Positions 3,413 to 41,564 of a stretch of 41,564 nucleotides of DNA are shown one piece after another. This DNA is from Vicinamibacterales bacterium (GTDB lineage: Bacteria; Acidobacteriota; Vicinamibacteria; Vicinamibacterales; 2-12-FULL-66-21), in assembly GCA_036258055.1 (NCBI GenBank), contig DATAEK010000013.1, forward strand, positions 1 through 41,564. The letters are read 5' to 3'. Numbering within the stretch: the first letter of the stretch is position 1; each line of letters starts with the position of its first letter. Position numbers and translations under genes: made by a program. Under the pieces are notes generated by a model. That model did not search any database and was not told where the DNA came from. It saw only the letters and a list, made by a program, of their open reading frames with translations.

Positions 3413-3430
3413 ACTCGGCCTCCCTTCTTA

Positions 3431-3538
3431 TTGAGGATTGATGAGTGCTGATTGAGGATCGCTGGTTGTGGATTTCTGAATTGGGGATCCCAACAATCCA
3501 CAACCAGCGATCTTCAATCAGCCTTCATCAATCCTCAA
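3431..3538. repeat. Large near-perfect palindrome: 44-bp arms (41/44 matching) around a 20-bp central loop that is itself quasi-palindromic (TTGGGGATCCCAA)
   Basis: Left arm 3431-3474 is the reverse complement of right arm 3495-3538 with 3 mismatches. The region is conspicuously AT-richer than its surroundings. It lies between the stop of the GT-C gene and the start of msrA. Confidence 0.7.
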
Positions 3539-3547
3539 TCGACACCC

Positions 3548-10658: not shown

Positions 10659-10901
10659 CTACTGGCCGGGCGGCGTGTACTGCAGCGCCTTCTTGACTGC
10701 GGCATCCACCTCCTGCGGAGTCACGAGCACCGTCGTGGAAACGCGGACGGCTCCGGACGCGTTGGCCGCTAGCGCCAGAGCGCTCACGCTTGCGAGGTCG
10801 GGAGAATCGATGATCGTATACACGTCGTGCTCCCCGAGCGCGAAGTAGAAGGCGTCGAGCTTCGCCCCGACACTCTTCAATACTGTCTCGAGCGCCGCCA
10901 C
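10659..10901 (-). CDS. GYD domain protein
   Basis: 80-aa ORF whose size and composition (AFYFALGEHDVYTIIDSPD...) resemble GYD-family proteins as recalled. Confidence 0.4.
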   Translation of the reverse strand: MAALETVLKSVGAKLDAFYFALGEHDVYTIIDSPDLASVSALALAANASGAVRVSTTVLVTPQEVDAAVKKALQYTPPGQ

Positions 10902-16545: not shown

Positions 16546-16547
16546 TT

Positions 16548-16748
16548 TTCAGTTTGCCGCGGGGCCCCACCCCCGCATCCTCAGTGCGCGTGTGGCCCCA
16601 CCCCCACGCGCGGCGCTCGGCGACTGCGCGCCTCGCGCCGGCCGCAGGCGCTCTGCCAGCGCTCGTCCTTCAGCGCGTCTGGGGTCCCACCCCCAGCTCG
16701 CGCGTTCGCGCTCACTGCGGCTCAAAGCTGTTTGCTCGCGCCGCGGGG
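16548..16748. repeat. ~200-bp non-coding repeat element, copy A, containing three GGGGYCCCACCCCC boxes
   Basis: About 90% identical to the reverse complement of 35972-36182 when aligned by eye (for example tcagtttgccgcggggccccacccccgcatcctcagtgcgcgt and ggctcaaagctgtttgctcgcgccgc). Lies between the S and M subunit genes of the molybdo-enzyme operon. Confidence 0.8.
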
Positions 16749-16763
16749 TTGGGGCGACGGCGT

Positions 16764-17246
16764 TCATTTGACAGGCAATTCGACCGCCGCCTGCAGGACG
16801 GCGTCGAAGATCCGCATGTAGCCCGTGCATCGGCACAGGTTGCCCGCGAGCGCGACCCTGACATCCGCCTCGGTTGGTTCGGGGTTGTTCGCGAGCAGGT
16901 TCACCGCGGCGAGCACCATGCCGGGGGTGCAGATGCCGCACTGAGCGCCGCCGTGCGCGATGAACGACTGCTGGACCGCGTGCAGCACGTCGCCGCCGGC
17001 CACACCTTCGATCGTCGTGATCGCGACGCCCTGCGCGTGCAGGAGCGGCACGAGACAACTGTTGACGAGCTGTCCGTCGATCAGCACCGAACAGGCGCCG
17101 CATTCACCTTCGCCGCAGCCTTCTTTTGTGCCGGTGAGGCGGAGGTCGTGACGAAGCACGTCGAGAAGGCGGGCCATCGGGTGCCCTTCGATCGTCGTGT
17201 CCGTGCCGTTGACGCGGCAGCGGATGGTGATCGTCGGGTCAGCCAT
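16764..17246 (-). CDS. (2Fe-2S)-binding small subunit of xanthine dehydrogenase-family enzyme (CoxS-like)
   Basis: Both [2Fe-2S] cysteine clusters are present (CGEGECGAC and CGICTPG...CRCTGY). The 8-nt start overlaps the end of the large subunit gene. Confidence 0.85.
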
Positions 17247-19461
17247 GCGCGGCCTCTGAGAGTGCCATCAGCGTTTCGGGTGTCAGCGGCAGCGTCGTTG
17301 GATTGAGTCCGGTGGCGTGCGCGACGGCGTTGAAGATCGCCGGCGCCGCGCCATCCATCGGCAGCTCGCCGATACCTTTCGCACCCGCAGGTCCGTACGG
17401 GTACGGCCGCTCCTCGAACGCCACACGAATCGGCGGGAGATCCATCGACGTGGGCATGATGTAGTTCGTCATCTGGCCGTTGATCATCCGCCCTTCGCGC
17501 CAGACGACCTGCTCGTACAGGGCCCAGCCGATCCCCTGCGCGACGCCCCCTTCGATCTGACCGATCGCCAGCACGGGGTTGATCACTTTGCCGACTTCCT
17601 GGACTGCGACGAAGTCATCCACCCGCGTCTCGAACGTGATCGCGTCGACGGTGACCTCCGCGACATACACCGCCCAGGCGTAGGTGCCGTAGGCATCTCC
17701 CTGGTACTTCTGATCGTCCCATCGACGCCCGGGCGGCGGCTGATAGCGAGCGGTCGCCTTGAGCGGCCCGACAGTCGCGATGTAGTCGCGGCACGCAGAC
17801 TGAAACTCGTCGCTCGAGTAGGCAGCACCGATGAGTCCCGCGTCGACGAGCGTGCGGCGGAGCCCGATCGCTGCTGTCTCGACGAGCTTGCCGACGACCA
17901 TGCAGGTCCGCGATGCGACTGTCGGTCCGCTGTTGGGCACGAGCGACGTATCGGGCTGGACGACGTCGATGGCGTCATGAGGGAGGGCGAGAGCGTCCCC
18001 GGCAATCTGCGCGAAGATGGTGTTGGTCCCCTGACCGATCTCCGTCGCCGAGGTCAGGACCCTGATGCGGCCGTCAGGCACCGCTTCCACCGCCACCACC
18101 GAGGCGAGGTGATCTTCACCCGATCCGGTGAAGCCAGCGCCGTGCATGAACGCCGCAAAGCCGATCCCGCGTTTGGATCGCGACCGTCGATTAGCCTCCG
18201 AGAATTGCTTCCGTTTGGCCGAGTAGCCGGACATCTCGAGAGCACGATCGAGCAGACCGGACATGTCCACGGGTTCGTCGATGACCTGTCCAACGGCGGT
18301 GGTCTGGCCGCGTTGAATGAAGTTGCGGCGGCGAAACTCTTCGGGTGTGAGTCCGACGGTCGCCGACACGCGATCCATTTGCCGCTCGAGCGCGAAGATG
18401 CTCTGCGGAGCGCCGAAGCCTCGGAACGCGCCATGCGGCGGCGCATTGGTGGCAACGGCGCGGCCGCGGATTCTGACGTTGGGGCAAGAGTACGGTCCCG
18501 CCGCGTGAATCGTTCCTCGGGAGAGGACGACCGGTGAGAGCGTGCAGTACGCGCCGCCGTCGATCACAAAGTCGATGTCCATCGCGAGGAGGCGCCCCTC
18601 CGCATCGACGGCCGTTCGATGCCGGGTCCGCGACGGATGGCGCTTCGTCGTCGCGACCATGTCCTCCCCGCGGTCGTAAATCAGCTTCACCGGCCGGTGC
18701 GCCTTCCACGCGAGCAGCGCCGCGTGACCGGCGATCACGGACGGGTATTCTTCCTTCCCACCGAACCCGCCGCCGGTTTCCGTCTGGACGATGCGGATCT
18801 TGTCTGCCGGAATGCCGAAGAGCACCGCCAGCGCCGTGTGGATGTAGTACGGGCACTGCATCGAGCCCCACACGGTGACGCCGTCGATCGGATCACCAGT
18901 GGCGATCATTCCATTCGGCTCGATGTAGAGCTGCTCCTGCGCACCCGTTTCGTACACGCCTTCCACGATGTGCGCCGCGGAGGCCATCGCCGTATCCACG
19001 TCGCCGCGCTGGACCAGATAGCGCTTGAACACGTTGTCGGCACCCCAGATCACATCACGCGCCGCGAGCGAATCATCGATCGTGAGCACGGGTGGCTCCG
19101 GATTGACGTCAATCGTGACGTGACGGCGCGCTTCCTCGAGCAGGAAGCGATCGGGATGCGCCAGCAGCACCACGGGTTCTTCGGGGTGATTGACCCGGCC
19201 GTCAGCGAGATACGGCTGATCGCGCTCGATGAGGGCGACGCAGTTGACGCCCGGGATGTCACCCGCAGTGACAATCGTGAACTCATCCCACGGAATGCCA
19301 GGCCCGTACTTGACGTCGCGGATCACGCCGCGCGCGACGGGGCTTCGAACCGTCGTGCCATACAACATCCCGGGCACGACCAGGTCGTCCACGTAACGCG
19401 CCTGACCCGTGACCTTGGCGCGTCCTTCACGGCGGTAGACGGGGGAACCAATGGAGGGCAT
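17239..19461 (-). CDS. Xanthine dehydrogenase-family molybdopterin-binding large subunit (aldehyde oxidase/XDH a/b hammerhead + MoCo domains); not a bona fide CO dehydrogenase
   Basis: 740 aa containing the GAFRGFGAPQ motif typical of XDH-family hydroxylases. Neither the AYXCSFR (form I) nor the AYRGAGR (form II) CODH active-site loop was found. Confidence 0.85.
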   Translation of the reverse strand: MPSIGSPVYRREGRAKVTGQARYVDDLVVPGMLYGTTVRSPVARGVIRDVKYGPGIPWDEFTIVTAGDIPGVNCVALIERDQPYLADGRVNHPEEPVVLLAHPDRFLLEEARRHVTIDVNPEPPVLTIDDSLAARDVIWGADNVFKRYLVQRGDVDTAMASAAHIVEGVYETGAQEQLYIEPNGMIATGDPIDGVTVWGSMQCPYYIHTALAVLFGIPADKIRIVQTETGGGFGGKEEYPSVIAGHAALLAWKAHRPVKLIYDRGEDMVATTKRHPSRTRHRTAVDAEGRLLAMDIDFVIDGGAYCTLSPVVLSRGTIHAAGPYSCPNVRIRGRAVATNAPPHGAFRGFGAPQSIFALERQMDRVSATVGLTPEEFRRRNFIQRGQTTAVGQVIDEPVDMSGLLDRALEMSGYSAKRKQFSEANRRSRSKRGIGFAAFMHGAGFTGSGEDHLASVVAVEAVPDGRIRVLTSATEIGQGTNTIFAQIAGDALALPHDAIDVVQPDTSLVPNSGPTVASRTCMVVGKLVETAAIGLRRTLVDAGLIGAAYSSDEFQSACRDYIATVGPLKATARYQPPPGRRWDDQKYQGDAYGTYAWAVYVAEVTVDAITFETRVDDFVAVQEVGKVINPVLAIGQIEGGVAQGIGWALYEQVVWREGRMINGQMTNYIMPTSMDLPPIRVAFEERPYPYGPAGAKGIGELPMDGAAPAIFNAVAHATGLNPTTLPLTPETLMALSEAAHG

Positions 19462-19483
19462 CGAGGGGCGATTATGACATCTG

Positions 19484-19562
19484 TCCGTGCCTGAGGTGCC
19501 TGGGTGCCTAAGGAGCCAGAGTGCCTCGGTGCGAAGGTGCCAAGGGCGCGAGGGTGCGCGCG
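19484..19562. repeat. Octamer-period tandem repeat tract (GGTGCNNN)n, copy 1
   Basis: gtgcctga/ggtgcctg/ggtgccta/aggagcca/gagtgcct/cggtgcga/aggtgcca/agggcgcg/agggtgcg. A second tract with the same unit lies at 41343-41408. It sits between the coxL-like start and the MEDS gene stop. Confidence 0.7.
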
Positions 19563-19563
19563 T

Positions 19564-20235
19564 TCAGATCTTGAGGCGCGCGTGGCGCAGCTCGGTAATC
19601 TTCCATTCAACCTTGTGCGGCTGCGCTGGTCTGCGCATGGCGATCCCGGGCGCTCTATAAAACGGATTCAACCGGTGATGTCCTTCGAGCAGAACGGATG
19701 AATGCGTCGTCAGTGCATGATCGAGCTGATGCGCGGGCACACGCCGGCGATCGTACTGGCACATCCCGGCGGCAGGAACCGACCGAAAGCGCTGATTCAG
19801 AAGTGCTTCGTACTCCACCAGCTGGGTTGATCCCGGGGGTCCCTCGACCAGCCACGACATGTCGCCACACGTGCGCAGGCCCAGGAATCCGCGATTCAAG
19901 GCCGATTCCACGGACTTGTTGAGGACACCGAGCACGCGGTCGGTATCAAAGCATCCATTGACCACGTACGTGTCGGCATGCGTCCTTTCGACCAGCGCCC
20001 CGTGACTGATCATTCGCTCGACGTCGATGCCGGCCGCGGTCAGAGCAGCGCGCAATTGTTCAAGCGCTGTCGGCGAGCGAGCACAGTAGACACATCGTTC
20101 GCCGCGACGCAATCCATCCGCCAGGTACTCGCTTGCCATGGCCCGCTGCTCTTCTTCGCTTTCGTACAACGCACAAACATGTTGATGCTGCCGGAAACGA
20201 TTCGACATCCCGCCATGCTGGGCGTGCGTCTCCAT
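19564..20235 (-). CDS. MEDS-domain protein (DcmR-like putative sensor domain)
   Basis: 223 aa. The N-terminal HVCALYESEEE block and overall pattern resemble the MEDS family as recalled. No DNA-binding or kinase domain is attached. Confidence 0.4.
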   Translation of the reverse strand: METHAQHGGMSNRFRQHQHVCALYESEEEQRAMASEYLADGLRRGERCVYCARSPTALEQLRAALTAAGIDVERMISHGALVERTHADTYVVNGCFDTDRVLGVLNKSVESALNRGFLGLRTCGDMSWLVEGPPGSTQLVEYEALLNQRFRSVPAAGMCQYDRRRVPAHQLDHALTTHSSVLLEGHHRLNPFYRAPGIAMRRPAQPHKVEWKITELRHARLKI

Positions 20236-20587
20236 GATTCCGTTGCCTCCGACGACCGGAAAGGAATTGGTCGAACCTGTCTACTACGACTGATAGTAGT
20301 CGTGTTGCCGAGTCAGTGCCAGCCGAATTCGCGCCTGCCACCGGAGCATCCAGGGGTTCGAGGGCATGGCATGGCAAATGGTGTATTTCGAAACCCACGT
20401 CCGAGAAATGGGCCGACTCGGGAGCTGTTTGGGCGTGCAGCTATCAGCTCGAGCCGATGGATCGAAGACGAACGAAGTTCGAGGAGTCAATGCAGCGGAT
20501 CGGAGGAAAAGGCAAAAGACGCCGCTGGAGCGCGAACGCCCCCAGCGGGGCGACGGCTGACCGCGAGAAGAGTTGCGGTTCGCGACG

Positions 20588-21457
20588 CTATGAACCACCG
20601 CCGAACGTGTTGCAGGCGTTCACGTCGCCGCTCTCGAGGCCGCGACGGAACCAGGTGACACGCTGTTCGGAGGATCCGTGCGTGAATCGATCGGGAGCCA
20701 CGCGCCCGGAGGACATGCGCTGCAGGCGATCGTCGCCGATGGATGCCGCCGCGTTGAGGCCCTCCTCGACGTCGCCGCGCTCGAGCTCGACCTTGCCCTG
20801 CACCGCGCGGCCGGACGCGGCCGCGTAGTGACCCCAGACGCCGGCGAAGCAATCCGCTTGCAGCTCGAGACGAACTGAGAGCGCGTTCTGTTGATCGGGT
20901 CGCGCAGATTGCGCGCGACGTACCTGCTCTTCGACCCCCAGCAGTCGCTGCACGTGATGACCCAGCTCGTGCGCGAGCACGTATGCCTGAGCAAAGTCGC
21001 CTGGCGCGCCAAGCTTGCTCTTGAGCTCGTCGAAGAATCCAAGATCAAGGTAGATCCGTTGATCGCCCGGACAGTAGAACGGGCCGGTGGCCGATTGCGC
21101 GAAACCGCACGCCGACTGGATCGCGTCGCGGAAGAGCACCGCGTGCGTGTCCTGGTACCGCGATCCCAGGACCTGCCGCCACGTCGCCTGGGCGTCGGTG
21201 AGGACAGCGTCGACCATGTCGACCATCCGCTCTTCACCAGGTGTTGCCGTCACGTTGCCCGAGGTCCCGACGGATGCCGACGGCGGCATGCTGCCGCCGT
21301 CAGTGCCGAGAAGGCTGAGAAAATCCACGCCGGTCGCCCAGCTCAGGACCAGCACGACGAGGAGCGCACCGATGCCCAGGCCGCCGGCGCGCATGCCCAT
21401 CCCCGACTGTCCCCGCATGTCCTCGATGTTGCCGCGATCGCCAGGCGTCCATTTCAT
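20588..21457 (-). CDS. YpfJ-family neutral zinc metallopeptidase (membrane-anchored)
   Basis: ATG at 21457 preceded by a strong SD (GGAGGAGGAG). N-terminal MKWTPGDRGNIEDMRG, a TM helix, and an HELGHH zinc motif, with FYCP and LELQADCFAGVW blocks typical of YpfJ proteins. Confidence 0.75.
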   Translation of the reverse strand: MKWTPGDRGNIEDMRGQSGMGMRAGGLGIGALLVVLVLSWATGVDFLSLLGTDGGSMPPSASVGTSGNVTATPGEERMVDMVDAVLTDAQATWRQVLGSRYQDTHAVLFRDAIQSACGFAQSATGPFYCPGDQRIYLDLGFFDELKSKLGAPGDFAQAYVLAHELGHHVQRLLGVEEQVRRAQSARPDQQNALSVRLELQADCFAGVWGHYAAASGRAVQGKVELERGDVEEGLNAAASIGDDRLQRMSSGRVAPDRFTHGSSEQRVTWFRRGLESGDVNACNTFGGGS

Positions 21458-29177: not shown

Positions 29178-29194
29178 GAAGTCGGCAGTCGCGG

Positions 29195-29232
29195 TCACGT
29201 AGCGTTCGGCTTCAGCCGGACCGCGCCTTTCG
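29195..29232. repeat. Copy 2 of the GTCACGTNGCGTYCGGCTTCAGCCGGACC repeat/hairpin element
   Basis: Shares gtcacgt.gcgt.cggcttcagccggacc with 2717-2753. Lies immediately 3' of the acylase gene. Confidence 0.5.
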
Positions 29233-30620: not shown

Positions 30621-30643
30621 AGTCTGCCGTCAGGCGGACCTAC

Positions 30644-30663
30644 GCGTCCGGCTAAATCCGGAC
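30644..30663. repeat. Hairpin GTCCGG-CTAAAT-CCGGAC between convergent genes (related to the 2729 and 29210 elements)
   Basis: Perfect 6-bp stem read from the sequence. It lies between the MBL gene stop (30620) and the flotillin stop (30678), and could act as a bidirectional terminator. Confidence 0.45.
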
Positions 30664-30677
30664 ACGACAACAGGGTG

Positions 30678-35950: not shown

Positions 35951-35971
35951 GGCCGGGGGCCCCTCGTTTCT

Positions 35972-36182
35972 AGCCAGCGGCGCGAGCGAACAGCCTTGAG
36001 CCGCGGCGAGCGCGCAGGCGCGAGCTGCCCTGTTTGGGGGTGGGCCCCAGACAGTCTGAGAAGAAGAGCAGTCAAAGCGCCTGCGGCCGGCGCGAGGCTC
36101 GCAGTCGCCGGGCGCCGCGCGTGGGGGTGGGGCCCTACGCGCACTAAGGATGCGGGGGTGGGGCCCGCAGCAAACTGAGAAA
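35972..36182. repeat. ~200-bp non-coding repeat element, copy B (inverted relative to copy A at 16548-16748)
   Basis: The reverse complement aligns with copy A along its whole length (three GGGGGTGGGGCCC boxes: gtttgggggtgggcccc, gcgtgggggtggggccc, gcgggggtggggccc). Intergenic, between the pepF stop and the next gene. Confidence 0.8.
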
Positions 36183-37976: not shown

Positions 37977-38022
37977 GCGCTGACGGGACGGAGGTTGTCA
38001 CGTCCTCCGTCCCTCACCGCAG

Positions 38023-39632: not shown

Positions 39633-40697
39633 TTATTTGAGACGCCAGCTCAGCGCCGTCGCGGCGAGGATCCGATACGAGTACTCGTAGTAGTTCTCGA
39701 TGCGATGGAAACGCGCGGAGGCGGCGAGGATGACACCGGGAACAACCTTGAACGTGCGGGTCAGACCGACTTCGGCGTAGTCGCGTACGCCGCCGTATCG
39801 CGTGCCGTCGCGGCGGAGGGAGTGGTAGTTGCGGTCTCCCTCTTCCGTCACGAAGTCGTCCCCTCGCCACACGATAAGATGACCCCGGAAGCCGCTGTAC
39901 TCGACGGCTCCGCGCGCGAGAAACGCCGCGCCTCTCTGGGTCCTCGACGGCCGGCTGCGATCGGGCACGAATCGCGCGGCGAGACCGAACGCCTCGAGCG
40001 TCGTGATGACGCGGGCCCGCTCCTCGAAACGGATGCCGGCGGCACCGCTGAAGCTGTCCGCGACCGGGCCTGACGAGAAGAGCTGTCCACCCTGGTGGAC
40101 GATGAACAACTGGATCGGCAGCGTGAGATGCGATCCCAGCTTGAGGTCCCCGTTCATGCCCGCGTCGAACCGCTCGCGATGTTCCGGTGTGTTGACCTTC
40201 TGCCAGTCGAGCCAGATCTCGTGGCGCAGACGATTGCCTGAAAACGTCCACGCGAATCCCGCCTCGTAGGGGCGATCGAACGAGAGCGTCTCGCGCTGGA
40301 GCGGTGGCAGGAGGGCGTGGGGACCGTCGAGGTCAGGACCGCCGAGCGTGCCGGCTCGCGAAGGCGGCAGCGTCCCGAACACGAATCGCGATCGGTGGCC
40401 GCGAATCGTCAGCGCCACGATCGGCCTCACGAGCTCGAAGGCATCGTCGGATCCGAAGCGCTGATTGGCGAACACGCCGAGCTCGAGGGTGGCGCGATCG
40501 GCGATCGATGCCTCGACGCTGACGCGTGGCGCGGCGCCGAAGATTGTCTCCCCCTCACGAAACGGGTTGCGGAACTCGGTGTTGTCGCCGTAGAACAGGA
40601 TGTCGGTCCGGAGCGCCACATGATCTTGCGCCCGTATTTCCGTACTTCCGACGATTGCGATGAGAGCTGCGAGCAGCACGCCGGCGCGGCGACGCAT
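39633..40697 (-). CDS. Secreted/outer-membrane hypothetical protein (possible beta-barrel)
   Basis: 354 aa with a signal peptide (MRRRAGVLLAALIAIVGSTEIRAQD). Alternating beta-strand-like segments and a C-terminal aromatic-containing strand (ATALSWRLK). Confidence 0.4.
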   Translation of the reverse strand: MRRRAGVLLAALIAIVGSTEIRAQDHVALRTDILFYGDNTEFRNPFREGETIFGAAPRVSVEASIADRATLELGVFANQRFGSDDAFELVRPIVALTIRGHRSRFVFGTLPPSRAGTLGGPDLDGPHALLPPLQRETLSFDRPYEAGFAWTFSGNRLRHEIWLDWQKVNTPEHRERFDAGMNGDLKLGSHLTLPIQLFIVHQGGQLFSSGPVADSFSGAAGIRFEERARVITTLEAFGLAARFVPDRSRPSRTQRGAAFLARGAVEYSGFRGHLIVWRGDDFVTEEGDRNYHSLRRDGTRYGGVRDYAEVGLTRTFKVVPGVILAASARFHRIENYYEYSYRILAATALSWRLK

Positions 40698-41331
40698 GTG
40701 CCTAACGATATCGCACCGCCATTGCGCGGTCCTTCCACGCGTCGCGCTTCTTGCGGTGCTGGGGGTGAGTGTCTTCAGCTCGGTCGCGTCCGCTCAGGCG
40801 ACGACAACGCAGACACAGACTGCTCCGCCGTCGACGTCAGACGATCCGTTCGCCCGGCACGCCTGGCGCTTCGAGATCGATTCCGAAATTGCCAGCGAAG
40901 CGTGGAACTACAACGGATCGCGTGAAGAGATCTATGGCCTCGAGGCGGGCTTCGCCTACGGTCTTCACCGGGGCCTGATGCTCAGGACGACGTTTCCCGT
41001 TCGCTACATCTCGCAACGGGGGATTGACGCGCTTCAACTCAGCGCCACGTTCGGCTTCCGGGGGCGCGTCGTCGGGTCCGCCCGCGCCGCGCTGTTCTGG
41101 CAGTTCGACCTCGGCGTGTCATTCGCCGATACGCTGGCGCCCCGGCGCGGCACGAGATTCAACTACCTGGCGCTCGGCAGCGTCGGCGGAACATTCCGGC
41201 TTCGAGGCGATATCTACGGCGTGACCGCGCTCCGGCTGCTCCATCTCTCGAACGCCAGCCTCGCCGGCCCGAACAGAAATCCTGACATCGAAGCCATCGG
41301 TATCCAGGTCGGGGTGGGGTGGGGGTTCTAG
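40696..41331 (+). CDS. PagL-like lipid A 3-O-deacylase / acyloxyacyl hydrolase family outer-membrane protein
   Basis: Signal peptide followed by a small beta-barrel-like protein ending in a PagL-type catalytic motif (LHLSNASLAGPNRNPDIEAIGIQVGVGWGF, i.e. H-x-S-N). Its start codon overlaps the divergent gene's start by 2 nt. Confidence 0.5.
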   Translation: MCLTISHRHCAVLPRVALLAVLGVSVFSSVASAQATTTQTQTAPPSTSDDPFARHAWRFEIDSEIASEAWNYNGSREEIYGLEAGFAYGLHRGLMLRTTFPVRYISQRGIDALQLSATFGFRGRVVGSARAALFWQFDLGVSFADTLAPRRGTRFNYLALGSVGGTFRLRGDIYGVTALRLLHLSNASLAGPNRNPDIEAIGIQVGVGWGF

Positions 41332-41342
41332 CACCTCTTGTC

Positions 41343-41408
41343 GGTGCCTGGGTGCCTGGGTGCCAAGGGTGCGAGGGTGCGAAGGTGCTCGAGGTGCAAG
41401 GGTGCCTA
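41343..41408. repeat. Octamer-period tandem repeat tract (GGGTGCNN)n, copy 2
   Basis: tcggtgcc/tgggtgcc/tgggtgcc/aagggtgc/gagggtgc/gaaggtgc/tcgaggtgc/aagggtgc. Four GGG runs separated by 5-6 nt loops. Intergenic, between convergent genes. Confidence 0.7.
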
Positions 41409-41414
41409 AAAGGA

Positions 41415-41564
41415 TCACCCCTTGCCCTTCCTCGCCTTGAGATCCTGTTTGAATCCCTCCCTGACCTTGAACCCGTTCTTCTCTGCCAGCTTGACCTCGC
41501 GCTCGGCTTCGTCGAACCGGCCGGTCAGCATGCAGACGACGGCGAGGTTGTTGTGGACTTCACC
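41415..41564 (-). CDS. TPR-repeat protein, C-terminal fragment (gene continues beyond the window end)
   Basis: The reverse-strand translation ends ...GEVHNNLAVVCMLTGRFDEAEREVKLAEKNGFKVREGFKQDLKARKGKG*, a canonical TPR helix pair. The 5' part lies outside the window. Confidence 0.5.
   Translation of the reverse strand, partial: GEVHNNLAVVCMLTGRFDEAEREVKLAEKNGFKVREGFKQDLKARKGKG

Follow-up and report, generated by a model that had tools for sequence, protein, structure and literature searches.

Genomic context of the two arrays

Two arrays of short tandem repeats, both non-coding and each of 8-9 units, were confirmed at both positions pointed out by an earlier note on this DNA, in a stretch of 41,564 nucleotides from a Vicinamibacterales bacterium which is hereafter called the window. 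The window is a soil-metagenome contig. The genes and features that bear on the two arrays are listed below.

17239-19461, minus strand: molybdopterin-enzyme (Mo-enzyme) large subunit gene, xanthine dehydrogenase / CO dehydrogenase family (PF02738, PF20256, PF01315)
19486-19560, G-rich on the plus strand: tract 1 array, 9 units, each a (G)GTGC core and a variable spacer of 3-4 nt
19564-20235, minus strand: MEDS-domain gene (PF14417, E 7.5e-44)
40696-41331, plus strand: PagL-like outer-membrane lipid A deacylase gene (start at 40696 as per assembly records)
41331-41397, plus strand: predicted fold-back hairpin in tract 2 RNA (-43.5 kcal/mol, z -2.5, MFE frequency 0.38)
41343-41408, plus strand: tract 2 array (allele A), 8 units with perfect GGTGC cores
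41415-41564, minus strand: TPR-like gene, 3' end only as the window end cuts the gene (stop codon 41415-41417)

Tract 1 lies between the MEDS gene and the Mo-enzyme gene, begins 6 nt past the MEDS stop codon and leaves 25 nt to the ATG of the Mo-enzyme gene. As both flanking genes are on the minus strand, it reads (GCACCNNN)n on the transcribed strand. Tract 2 occupies most of the 83-nt gap between the convergent PagL-like and TPR-like genes, with the PagL-like stop codon 11 nt before it and the TPR-like stop codon 9 nt from its last unit. Among named proteins, the one closest to the PagL-like protein comes from a Vicinamibacterales MAG and is only 50% identical, so that on this evidence the window is placed in that order indirectly. 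The earlier note, made by a model from the letters, had described octamer-period tracts centred on GGTGC at two intergenic sites, the first next to the MEDS and Mo-enzyme genes and the second between convergent genes; the tracts are real and mutually related, and their gene context is as described there.

Sequence design of the arrays

The units of the two arrays, divided into core and spacer, are as follows.

Tract 1, units 1-3: cGTGC-CTGA, GGTGC-CTG, GGTGC-CTAA
Tract 1, units 4-6: GGAGC-CAGA, GTGC-CTC, GGTGC-GAA
Tract 1, units 7-9: GGTGC-CAAG, GGCGC-GAG, GGTGC-GCG
Tract 2, spacers in order: CTG, CTG, CAAG, GAG, GAA, TCGA, AAG, CTA

A period of 8-9, and also of 17, was returned for both tracts by Tandem Repeats Finder. 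Matches to the pattern GGTGCN{3,4}GGTGC number 10 in the window, where dinucleotide shuffles give an expectation of 0.19 (0/100 shuffles reach 10). Nine of the ten matches fall inside the two tracts, and neither strand of the whole window has another run of at least three GTGC units spaced 7-10 nt apart. The cores depart from the common form at 0/40 positions in tract 2 and 4/45 in tract 1, whereas the spacers do so at 11/24 and 13/27 respectively, a difference with Fisher p values of 3e-6 (tract 2) and 3e-4 (tract 1) that are optimistic because the unit boundaries were drawn after viewing the data. The C/G ratio of the C-rich strand is 1.67 in tract 1 and 2.46 in tract 2. Both tracts are solo and not paired, the exception being one inverted unit at 41331-41335.

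The G-quadruplex potential of both tracts was scored. The canonical motif credited to the second tract is present in allele A of tract 2 (G3-N5-G3-N6-G3-N5-G3 at 41350-41377) and is the only canonical one in the window, none being found in tract 1 or in the two other tract 2 alleles, B and C, that are described below. G4Hunter maxima were 0.80 for tract 1, 1.04 for tract 2, 0.88 for allele B and 0.68 for allele C, with a cut-off of about 1.2 in a 25-nt window. Many of the related arrays have GG runs only, and the part that is conserved among them is GTGC and not the G runs.

Variation between strains and at orthologous sites

Tract 1 was identical on five further contigs (six in all), a test of little power since these contigs are 99.9% identical throughout. 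Tract 2 was found as three alleles on the window and six further contigs, all of which encode an identical PagL-like protein.

Allele A (window, L179): 8 units, gene gap 83 nt
Allele B (L181, L182): 7 GTGCCARG units, gene gap 62 nt
Allele C (L177, L178, L180): 6 units, gene gap 54 nt

A comparison of L181 (allele B) with L177 (allele C) over 1620 nt shows two substitutions and a difference of one 8-nt unit, and slipped-strand mispairing yields one-unit changes of this kind. The suggestion that the tracts are VNTR-like is thus borne out at tract 2, with 8, 7 and 6 units between strains, and finds no counterpart at tract 1, which is invariant on its six contigs. Between allele A and alleles B and C nearly every spacer differs, and a recombination boundary lies at tract 2, the contigs differing by 0.1-0.3% to its left and by 13.6% (20/147 nt) to its right; the array has therefore been retained in a clearly diverged lineage with its core and phase kept and its spacers changed. 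The position of this breakpoint at tract 2 raised the idea of a Chi-like recombination hot spot, but a single event does not allow it to be assessed. The end of a mobile element was considered as well, as the left flanks of the two tracts are alike (TCTGTCC at tract 1, TCTTGTCG at tract 2), yet alleles B and C are without that flank, and the likeness is accordingly attributed to chance.

At more distant orthologous sites the arrays come and go. Downstream of a PagL ortholog with 79% protein identity (L183) the sequence reads TAA-agtcccag-(GGTGCCAG)n and the contig ends inside the array, while next to an ortholog with 76% identity (L184) there is no array and the two genes are 9 nt apart. In L124, the only syntenic relative with a MEDS ortholog (82%), the place of tract 1 is taken by (CCAACGC)n, and L262, which is syntenic but without the MEDS gene, has no array upstream of the Mo-enzyme gene. 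Being present, absent or replaced by an array of another core at orthologous sites, the arrays are dispensable and turn over quickly; dispensability follows also from L184, which has neither array nor hairpin.

Related arrays in Acidobacteriota and other taxa

One genome per species was scanned for the exact pattern of four GGTGC cores at 8-9 nt spacing, and at least 118 loci match, many of them similar to the window tracts. The matches listed are of two kinds. One consists of perfect 8-mer microsatellites, which are found for the most part in actinomycetes and have no relation to the window tracts, and the other of degenerate arrays of 4-30 units with a GGTGC core and spacers such as CAG, CAA, CAC, GAG, GAC, GAA and CTG. 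The degenerate arrays occur in 19/25 of the Acidobacteriota loci as compared to 15/93 of the loci from other taxa among the matches listed (odds ratio 16, p 3e-8), and their Acidobacteriota carriers in that set are chiefly Vicinamibacterales, with Solibacteraceae as well. Several Acidobacteriota loci hold 3-6 arrays per 8 kb. The same 4-unit pattern gave 76 matches in viral contigs, mostly perfect microsatellites and none bearing on the window, and a literature search on GGTGC repeats in Acidobacteria and on tandem repeats in Vicinamibacter returned nothing relevant.

As the GGTGC scan itself selects for GGTGC, loci fetched through their proteins were also examined. GGTGC-core arrays were present there too, on L183 and, with a period of 7, on the MEDS-homolog contigs L139, L153 and L156, along with arrays of other cores on MEDS-homolog contigs (CCAACGC, GGTTCA/GAACC, CTGCCCA and AGGGATC). 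A stretch of 20.6 kb from a named Vicinamibacterales MAG (L261), fetched through its PagL homolog and carrying official gene calls, has four intergenic arrays against two in the 41.5 kb of the window, all of the same constant-core design and with cores other than GGTGC.

L261, at the orthologous convergent site: GGATCC/GGGTCC array, period 7
L261: GCGGAT plus 3-4 nt, 18 units
L261, inverted pair: CAGTCGN and GACTGNC (cores AGTCG/CGACT)

The shared architecture is a constant core with a spacer that varies in sequence and length, at a period of 7-10 nt. Since it recurs with other cores in L261 and in further protein-fetched loci, it is general in the lineage and GGTGC is one core among several.

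Placement, orientation and inverted pairs

By heuristic, GC3-based gene calls, all arrays of the Acidobacteriota loci lie between open reading frames, often directly after stop codons. The apparent overlaps are with 5' extensions of reading frames, in which an in-frame start sits just past the array, or with the last few codons. The genes on either side of an array may be convergent, tandem or divergent, and both orientations of the array are found. For arrays with a gene end no more than 60 nt away, the G-rich strand corresponds to the sense strand of that gene in 17 cases versus 5, or 14 versus 4 when counted by locus (binomial p about 0.02-0.03, with the same heuristic gene calls), and L261 adds three more G-rich-sense cases with official gene calls. 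Tract 1 is one of the less common antisense arrays, and the G-rich strand of tract 2 is the sense strand of the PagL-like gene and the antisense strand of the TPR gene.

Between convergent genes the arrays are often inverted pairs. The G-rich arm comes first on either strand in all eight pairs (L007, L023, L030, L035, L054, L066, L131 and L261), and the pairs give very stable predicted hairpins with z of -4 to -14. Array orientation was also compared with local GC skew as a proxy of replication direction at the loci with usable skew, where 7 were opposite and 3 the same, a difference that falls short of significance, with gene strand as a confounder.

Predicted RNA structure and transcript ends

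In RNA the unit GGUGCC can pair with itself through four G-C and two G.U pairs. The hairpin predicted for the plus-strand RNA of tract 2 is long and imperfect and begins at the PagL-like stop codon; its outer stem is a perfect 7-bp helix of GCACCUC (41331-41337) with GAGGUGC (41391-41397) and its inner stems are GGUGCC-type units paired via G-C and G.U. Taken alone, the tract 2 array has a z of -3.5 on the G-rich strand and +2.8 (2.76) on the C-rich strand, and the C-rich strand of the tract 1 array one of +0.83. With flanks, the minus-strand RNA has no excess of structure at either tract (tract 1 z 0.13, tract 2 z -0.77). The mean z of 24 solo arrays was -2.06 for the G-rich strand (p 8e-4) and +0.64 for the C-rich strand. 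The G-rich excess is carried by GGTGCC-type units, with GGTGCG-type arrays near 0, and alleles B and C with their flanks are on a par with shuffles in folding (z -1.3 and -0.3), their C-rich strands being unusually unstructured (z +2.2).

The terminator scan found no U-tract terminators near tracts 1 and 2. An intrinsic terminator joins a G+C-rich hairpin to a U-tract, and the predicted tract 2 hairpin is U-less and does not fit that form. The proposal that the tracts are terminator-associated stays plausible for tract 2 on account of the hairpin at the stop codon. The other convergent gene pairs with room between them (30621-30677 and 37977-38022) have plain U-less hairpins with z of -2.8 to -4.4, from which it follows that tract 2 occupies the usual gene-end hairpin site of this genome.

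A promoter scan around both tracts gave nothing relevant, with no promoter-like sites within 19000-20600. A search of the whole window against Rfam gave no match at gathering score. With E-value thresholds the surroundings of tract 1 gave two matches at chance level (E 0.7-0.9), and those of tract 2 gave none. Two further identities were considered and rejected. A mimic of Shine-Dalgarno or anti-Shine-Dalgarno sequences, suggested by GAGGUG which complements the 16S 3' end, would involve the spacer of few units, and the other cores are unrelated to it; for a sigma-54 promoter or NtrC half-site (TGGCAC, GCACC-N5-GGTGC) the spacings are, on inspection, wrong, and tract 2 lies between gene ends.

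Comparison with known repeat systems

The REP/BIME (REPIN) elements of enterobacteria and pseudomonads are single imperfect palindromes of 20-40 nt that have a GTAG head and depend on RAYT transposases for their mobility. They resemble the present arrays in being extragenic and dispersed, in lying at gene 3' ends and in convergent gaps in either orientation, and in often forming inverted doublets and hairpins, REPs being known to stabilise upstream mRNA. They differ in that the elements described here are tandem arrays of 8-nt units and not single palindromes, and thus do not fit the REP/REPIN form.

LSSRs, with units of 5-11 nt, are abundant in some genomes and have been ascribed to slippage (Mrazek, Guo and Shah 2007, via PMC4679880). 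As they are outlined in PMC4679880, they are like the present arrays in having head-to-tail units of 7-9 nt, mostly intergenic locations and polymorphic copy number, and in being plentiful in certain free-living lineages with large genomes but uncommon elsewhere. In contrast to the LSSRs outlined there, the window units have a constant 5-nt core beside 2-4 nt that vary in sequence and length, inverted pairs are frequent in the present family, and Acidobacteriota are not among the LSSR lineages listed in that account. The STRR repeats form hairpins, are located in the hupS-hupL gap and may make transcripts more stable (PMC2670836). The cyanobacterial STRRs, as sketched in PMC2670836 and in Vioque 1997 (via PMC7593598), are likewise dispersed intergenic tandem repeats of ~7 nt with within-operon sites and hairpins, and these sources offer transcript stability and termination as proposed functions and no proven one. 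STRRs are almost perfect heptamers of another phylum with other unit sequences, and no sequence relationship is implied. With LSSRs and STRRs the two tracts share a non-coding intergenic location, head-to-tail repetition of 5-11 nt units beyond chance length (9 and 8 units), recurrence at many loci of a genome or lineage and, at tract 2 though not on the six contigs of tract 1, a copy number that differs between strains; they lack the near-identical units of the STRR heptamers, their spacers differing at about half of the positions and being 3 or 4 nt long.

In design, the closest look-alikes are the class 1 sites of Geobacter metallireducens, paired tandem octanucleotides GTTGCTYN proposed as global-regulator sites (PMC2700814), and the analogy is one of appearance and not of mechanism. 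The octamers likewise have a constant 5' part, degenerate last positions and many intergenic copies per genome, are often set as opposite-strand pairs at variable distance, and have a GTTGC core resembling GGTGC. They differ in having four units per site as against 8-30 here, and opposite-strand pairing is common in the relatives (L007, L023, L030, L035, L054 and L066) while the window tracts are solo. In the colibactin island, a VNTR of octanucleotide units, (ACAGATAC)n, lies between clbR and clbB (PMC7364221, PMC8461471), and in the accounts given there it is similar in its 8-nt unit, its intergenic position and its variation in copy number between strains. It differs, in the same accounts, in being a single locus of perfect units in a promoter region and not a degenerate genome-wide family.

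Interpretation of the arrays

The arrays lie only between genes, recur across loci and genomes, gain and lose whole units, and turn over at orthologous sites. We therefore favour, with a probability of roughly 0.6, the reading that the two tracts belong to a dispersed family of degenerate short-period arrays which is the local counterpart of LSSR/STRR repeats in the intergenic spacers of Vicinamibacterales-type Acidobacteriota. The unit of such a family would consist of a constant core of 5-6 nt, here GGTGC(C), and a variable spacer of 2-4 nt, and the number of units would probably change through slipped-strand mispairing. The arrays would not be specific regulators of the neighbouring MEDS, Mo-enzyme and PagL genes. 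Against this reading stand the constant core beside varying spacers, for which slippage with uniform mutation fails to account, and the shuffle-like folding of alleles B and C with flanks and of the GGTGCG-type arrays.

More tentatively, and with the odds somewhat against it, folding predictions suggest that the usual effect of an array might be exerted at the level of the transcript, where one that is G-rich in sense may act as a gene-end hairpin, a terminator or a 3' stabiliser. In such an orientation, as with tract 2 after the PagL-like gene, the RNA would form a long, imperfect, U-less hairpin just past the stop codon, and the same transcript-end role has been put forward for the STRR and REP elements. 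With the strands reversed, as for tract 1 in the transcript running from the MEDS to the Mo-enzyme gene, the array would be a C-rich, unstructured and neutral spacer through which transcription runs on. The hairpin role is inapplicable to tract 1 owing to its minority orientation and to the z of 0.13 of its sense RNA.

Alternative explanations

A sequence-specific protein might use the arrays as binding platforms, with the GGTGC core as contact and the spacers as linkers, either on double-stranded DNA (a nucleoid-associated or ribbon-helix-helix protein, compare MetJ) or with single-stranded RNA or DNA laid round an oligomeric ring (compare TRAP). TRAP binds triplets spaced by 2-3 variable bases. 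A protein that reads short motifs predicts a fixed core beside spacers of changing sequence and length, as slippage alone does not, and the GGTGC core does recur with different spacers and at periods of 7, 8 and 9 in many genomes. The period is in itself a poor objection to protein binding, since MetJ binds tandem 8-bp boxes and the omega repressor 7-bp heptads; the earlier view that an operator array is unlikely, which leaned on the 8-nt period, is better founded on where the arrays lie and on their many cores. They sit between convergent gene ends where operators are unexpected, and a flexible period of 7-9 bp is awkward for cooperative binding of duplex DNA. Unrelated cores also coexist in one genome, namely GGATCC, GCGGAT and AGTCG in L261 and both CCAACGC and GGTGCCAG in the organism behind L124 and L183 (taken to be a single one, the contigs being from one sample at about 80% identity), and with several unrelated cores per genome many proteins would be needed. 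The proposal of the Geobacter metallireducens GTTGCTYN octamers as global-regulator sites (PMC2700814) speaks in favour of such platforms, which we nevertheless regard as unlikely here.

It is similarly improbable that the arrays are neutral, functionless by-products of slippage which accumulate where extra DNA is tolerated, their G-rich-sense bias arising from transcription-linked C-to-T mutation or from selection against a harmful orientation. Their presence, absence and replacement at orthologous sites, the one-unit indels between strains, the many cores, the strictly intergenic location and the occurrence in both orientations and in all gene arrangements are consistent with such an origin. 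Against it stand a core that is constant across arrays and genomes, the systematic order of the inverted pairs with the G-rich arm first in 8/8, a G-rich strand that folds better than shuffles, and the persistence of some array at the same site in lineages about 14-20% diverged.

The constant-core and variable-spacer design, the many core families and the invariable G-rich-arm-first order would also suit a more far-reaching and rather speculative scheme, to which we give a low probability. The arrays would here be made or spread by a dedicated mechanism, for which a non-autonomous mobile element ending in short recognition-site arrays or microhomology-guided repeat addition are candidates, and would serve as the main U-less bidirectional terminators of Vicinamibacteria, possibly read by an oligomeric single-strand-binding protein.

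The C-rich strand could be the active one if (GCACCNNN)n RNA loaded Rho, ending the TPR transcript and attenuating read-through from the MEDS to the Mo-enzyme gene. Rut-type sites are C-rich, G-poor and unstructured over ~70-80 nt; at the two tracts the C-strand C/G ratios are 1.67 and 2.46, with-flank z values are 0.13 and -0.77, and the C-rich strand alone is less structured than shuffles at tract 2 (z +2.8) and in alleles B and C (+2.2). Both tracts start 6-9 nt past a minus-strand stop codon with C-rich sense, and the unrelated L124 array at the orthologous MEDS site is also C-rich in sense (18 C vs 5 G). Yet the arrays of the family that lie by stop codons are mostly G-rich in sense (17 vs 5) and an 8-nt period is no known requirement of Rho, which makes this a highly improbable explanation.

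Least probable of all, with only the canonical motif in allele A and the varying unit number of tract 2 in its favour, is that the adjacent genes are controlled by the tracts, either as regulatory G-quadruplexes or as contingency loci subject to phase variation, as the earlier note had offered among its possibilities: all G4Hunter scores are under the usual threshold of 1.2, the outcome that the earlier note itself had named as refuting, the canonical motif is missing from tract 1 and from alleles B and C, many family members have GG runs only, and tract 2 lies between two stop codons, so that its unit number cannot switch a promoter or a reading frame, while tract 1 is invariant on six contigs with no promoter-like site nearby. 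Nothing indicates a G-quadruplex or phase-variation switch for the neighbouring Mo-enzyme and PagL genes.

Implications for the Vicinamibacteria

Vicinamibacteria abound in soil, yet hardly any molecular work has been done on them. The arrays are a candidate answer to the question of how genes end in a high-GC phylum, U-tract terminators not having been found in the window. They break short-read assemblies, as in the L183 contig which ends inside one, and are natural strain-typing markers for metagenomes. If the sampled density holds (2 in 41.5 kb of the window, 4 in 20.6 kb of L261), such arrays would shape most of the intergenic DNA of Vicinamibacteria.

Similar arrays built on different cores

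Arrays sharing the design of tracts 1 and 2, the two intergenic octamer arrays of the window with the core (G)GTGC, namely a constant core and a spacer variable in sequence and length with a period of 7-10 nt, were also identified with other cores on three of the compared contigs, L124, L131 and the Vicinamibacterales genome contig L261.

Positions and cores of the similar arrays
L124 1344-1377: core CCAACGC
L131 1100-1216 (L151 is the same): core GGTTCA/GAACC
L261 10682-10726: core GGATCC
L261 16166-16338: core GCGGAT; 4-5 subunits together form a higher-order repeat unit some 43 nt long
L261 18388-18663: core AGTCG/CGACT

Where arrays form inverted pairs, the G-rich arm preceded the C-rich arm in all eight pairs counted (on L007, L023, L030, L035, L054, L066, L131 and L261), on either strand, and the order with the C-rich arm first was not found among these eight.

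Surroundings of the two tracts

When window 41329-41417 is compared with L177, L178, L180, L181 and L182, tract 2 marks the position of a recombination boundary, a single event that would fit chance and a hot spot equally well; divergence is 0.1-0.3% over 1-4.7 kb to the left of the tract and 13.6% (20/147) to its right. The top G4Hunter score of the window, 2.20, was obtained at 41308-41328 (GGGGTGGGGTGGGGG) and exceeds the scores of both tracts; this stretch has only three G runs and forms part of the 3'-terminal codons of the PagL-like gene, encoding GVGWGF.

The partly syntenic relative L262 (1-10582) has the genes for the molybdopterin-enzyme, MatE, glyoxalase, response regulator, penicillin amidase, lipid A deacylase and PagL in common with the window; the genes for MEDS and the Zn-peptidase are missing from it. 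In L262 the MatE gene is followed after 13 nt by the molybdopterin-enzyme gene, and no array lies there.

Other repeats and hairpins of the window

The window contains two mutually inverted copies (16546-16763 and 35951-36181) of a dispersed element, intergenic and some 210 nt long. Three GGGCCCCACCCCC-like motifs occur in each copy, and the arms measure 102 nt (91% complementarity) and 67 nt (81%). In the molybdopterin-enzyme operon, one copy separates the genes for the FAD and Fe-S subunits; a third copy, at L180 2002-2113, matches window 16549-16662 at 94%.

A long intergenic hairpin flanked by two minus-strand genes has 45-nt arms, 93% complementary, around a 20-nt loop, and its predicted RNA fold reaches -78.6 kcal/mol (z -12). 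Both arms consist of GATTGAGGAT-like repeats (TRF period 14), the G-rich arm coming first. Three intergenic sites carry (C)GTCCGGCTTCAGCCGGAC(C), a dispersed hairpin motif of REP-like type, with identities of 93% and 72-83% between its copies.

Hairpins of the window
3430-3539: long intergenic hairpin
2713-2741, 29194-29222 and 30643-30666: REP-like motif

Contig differences and assembly breaks

The window and contig L001 are 99.9% identical apart from 121 nt (10685-10805) missing from L001. This segment, whose length is not divisible by three, falls within a putative 80-aa minus-strand ORF (10659-10901), and no direct repeat flanking it was evident.

Several contigs start or stop inside arrays of the same type (L183 at 1695-1721; also L019, L034, L073 and L224-L226), which indicates that such arrays break short-read assemblies.
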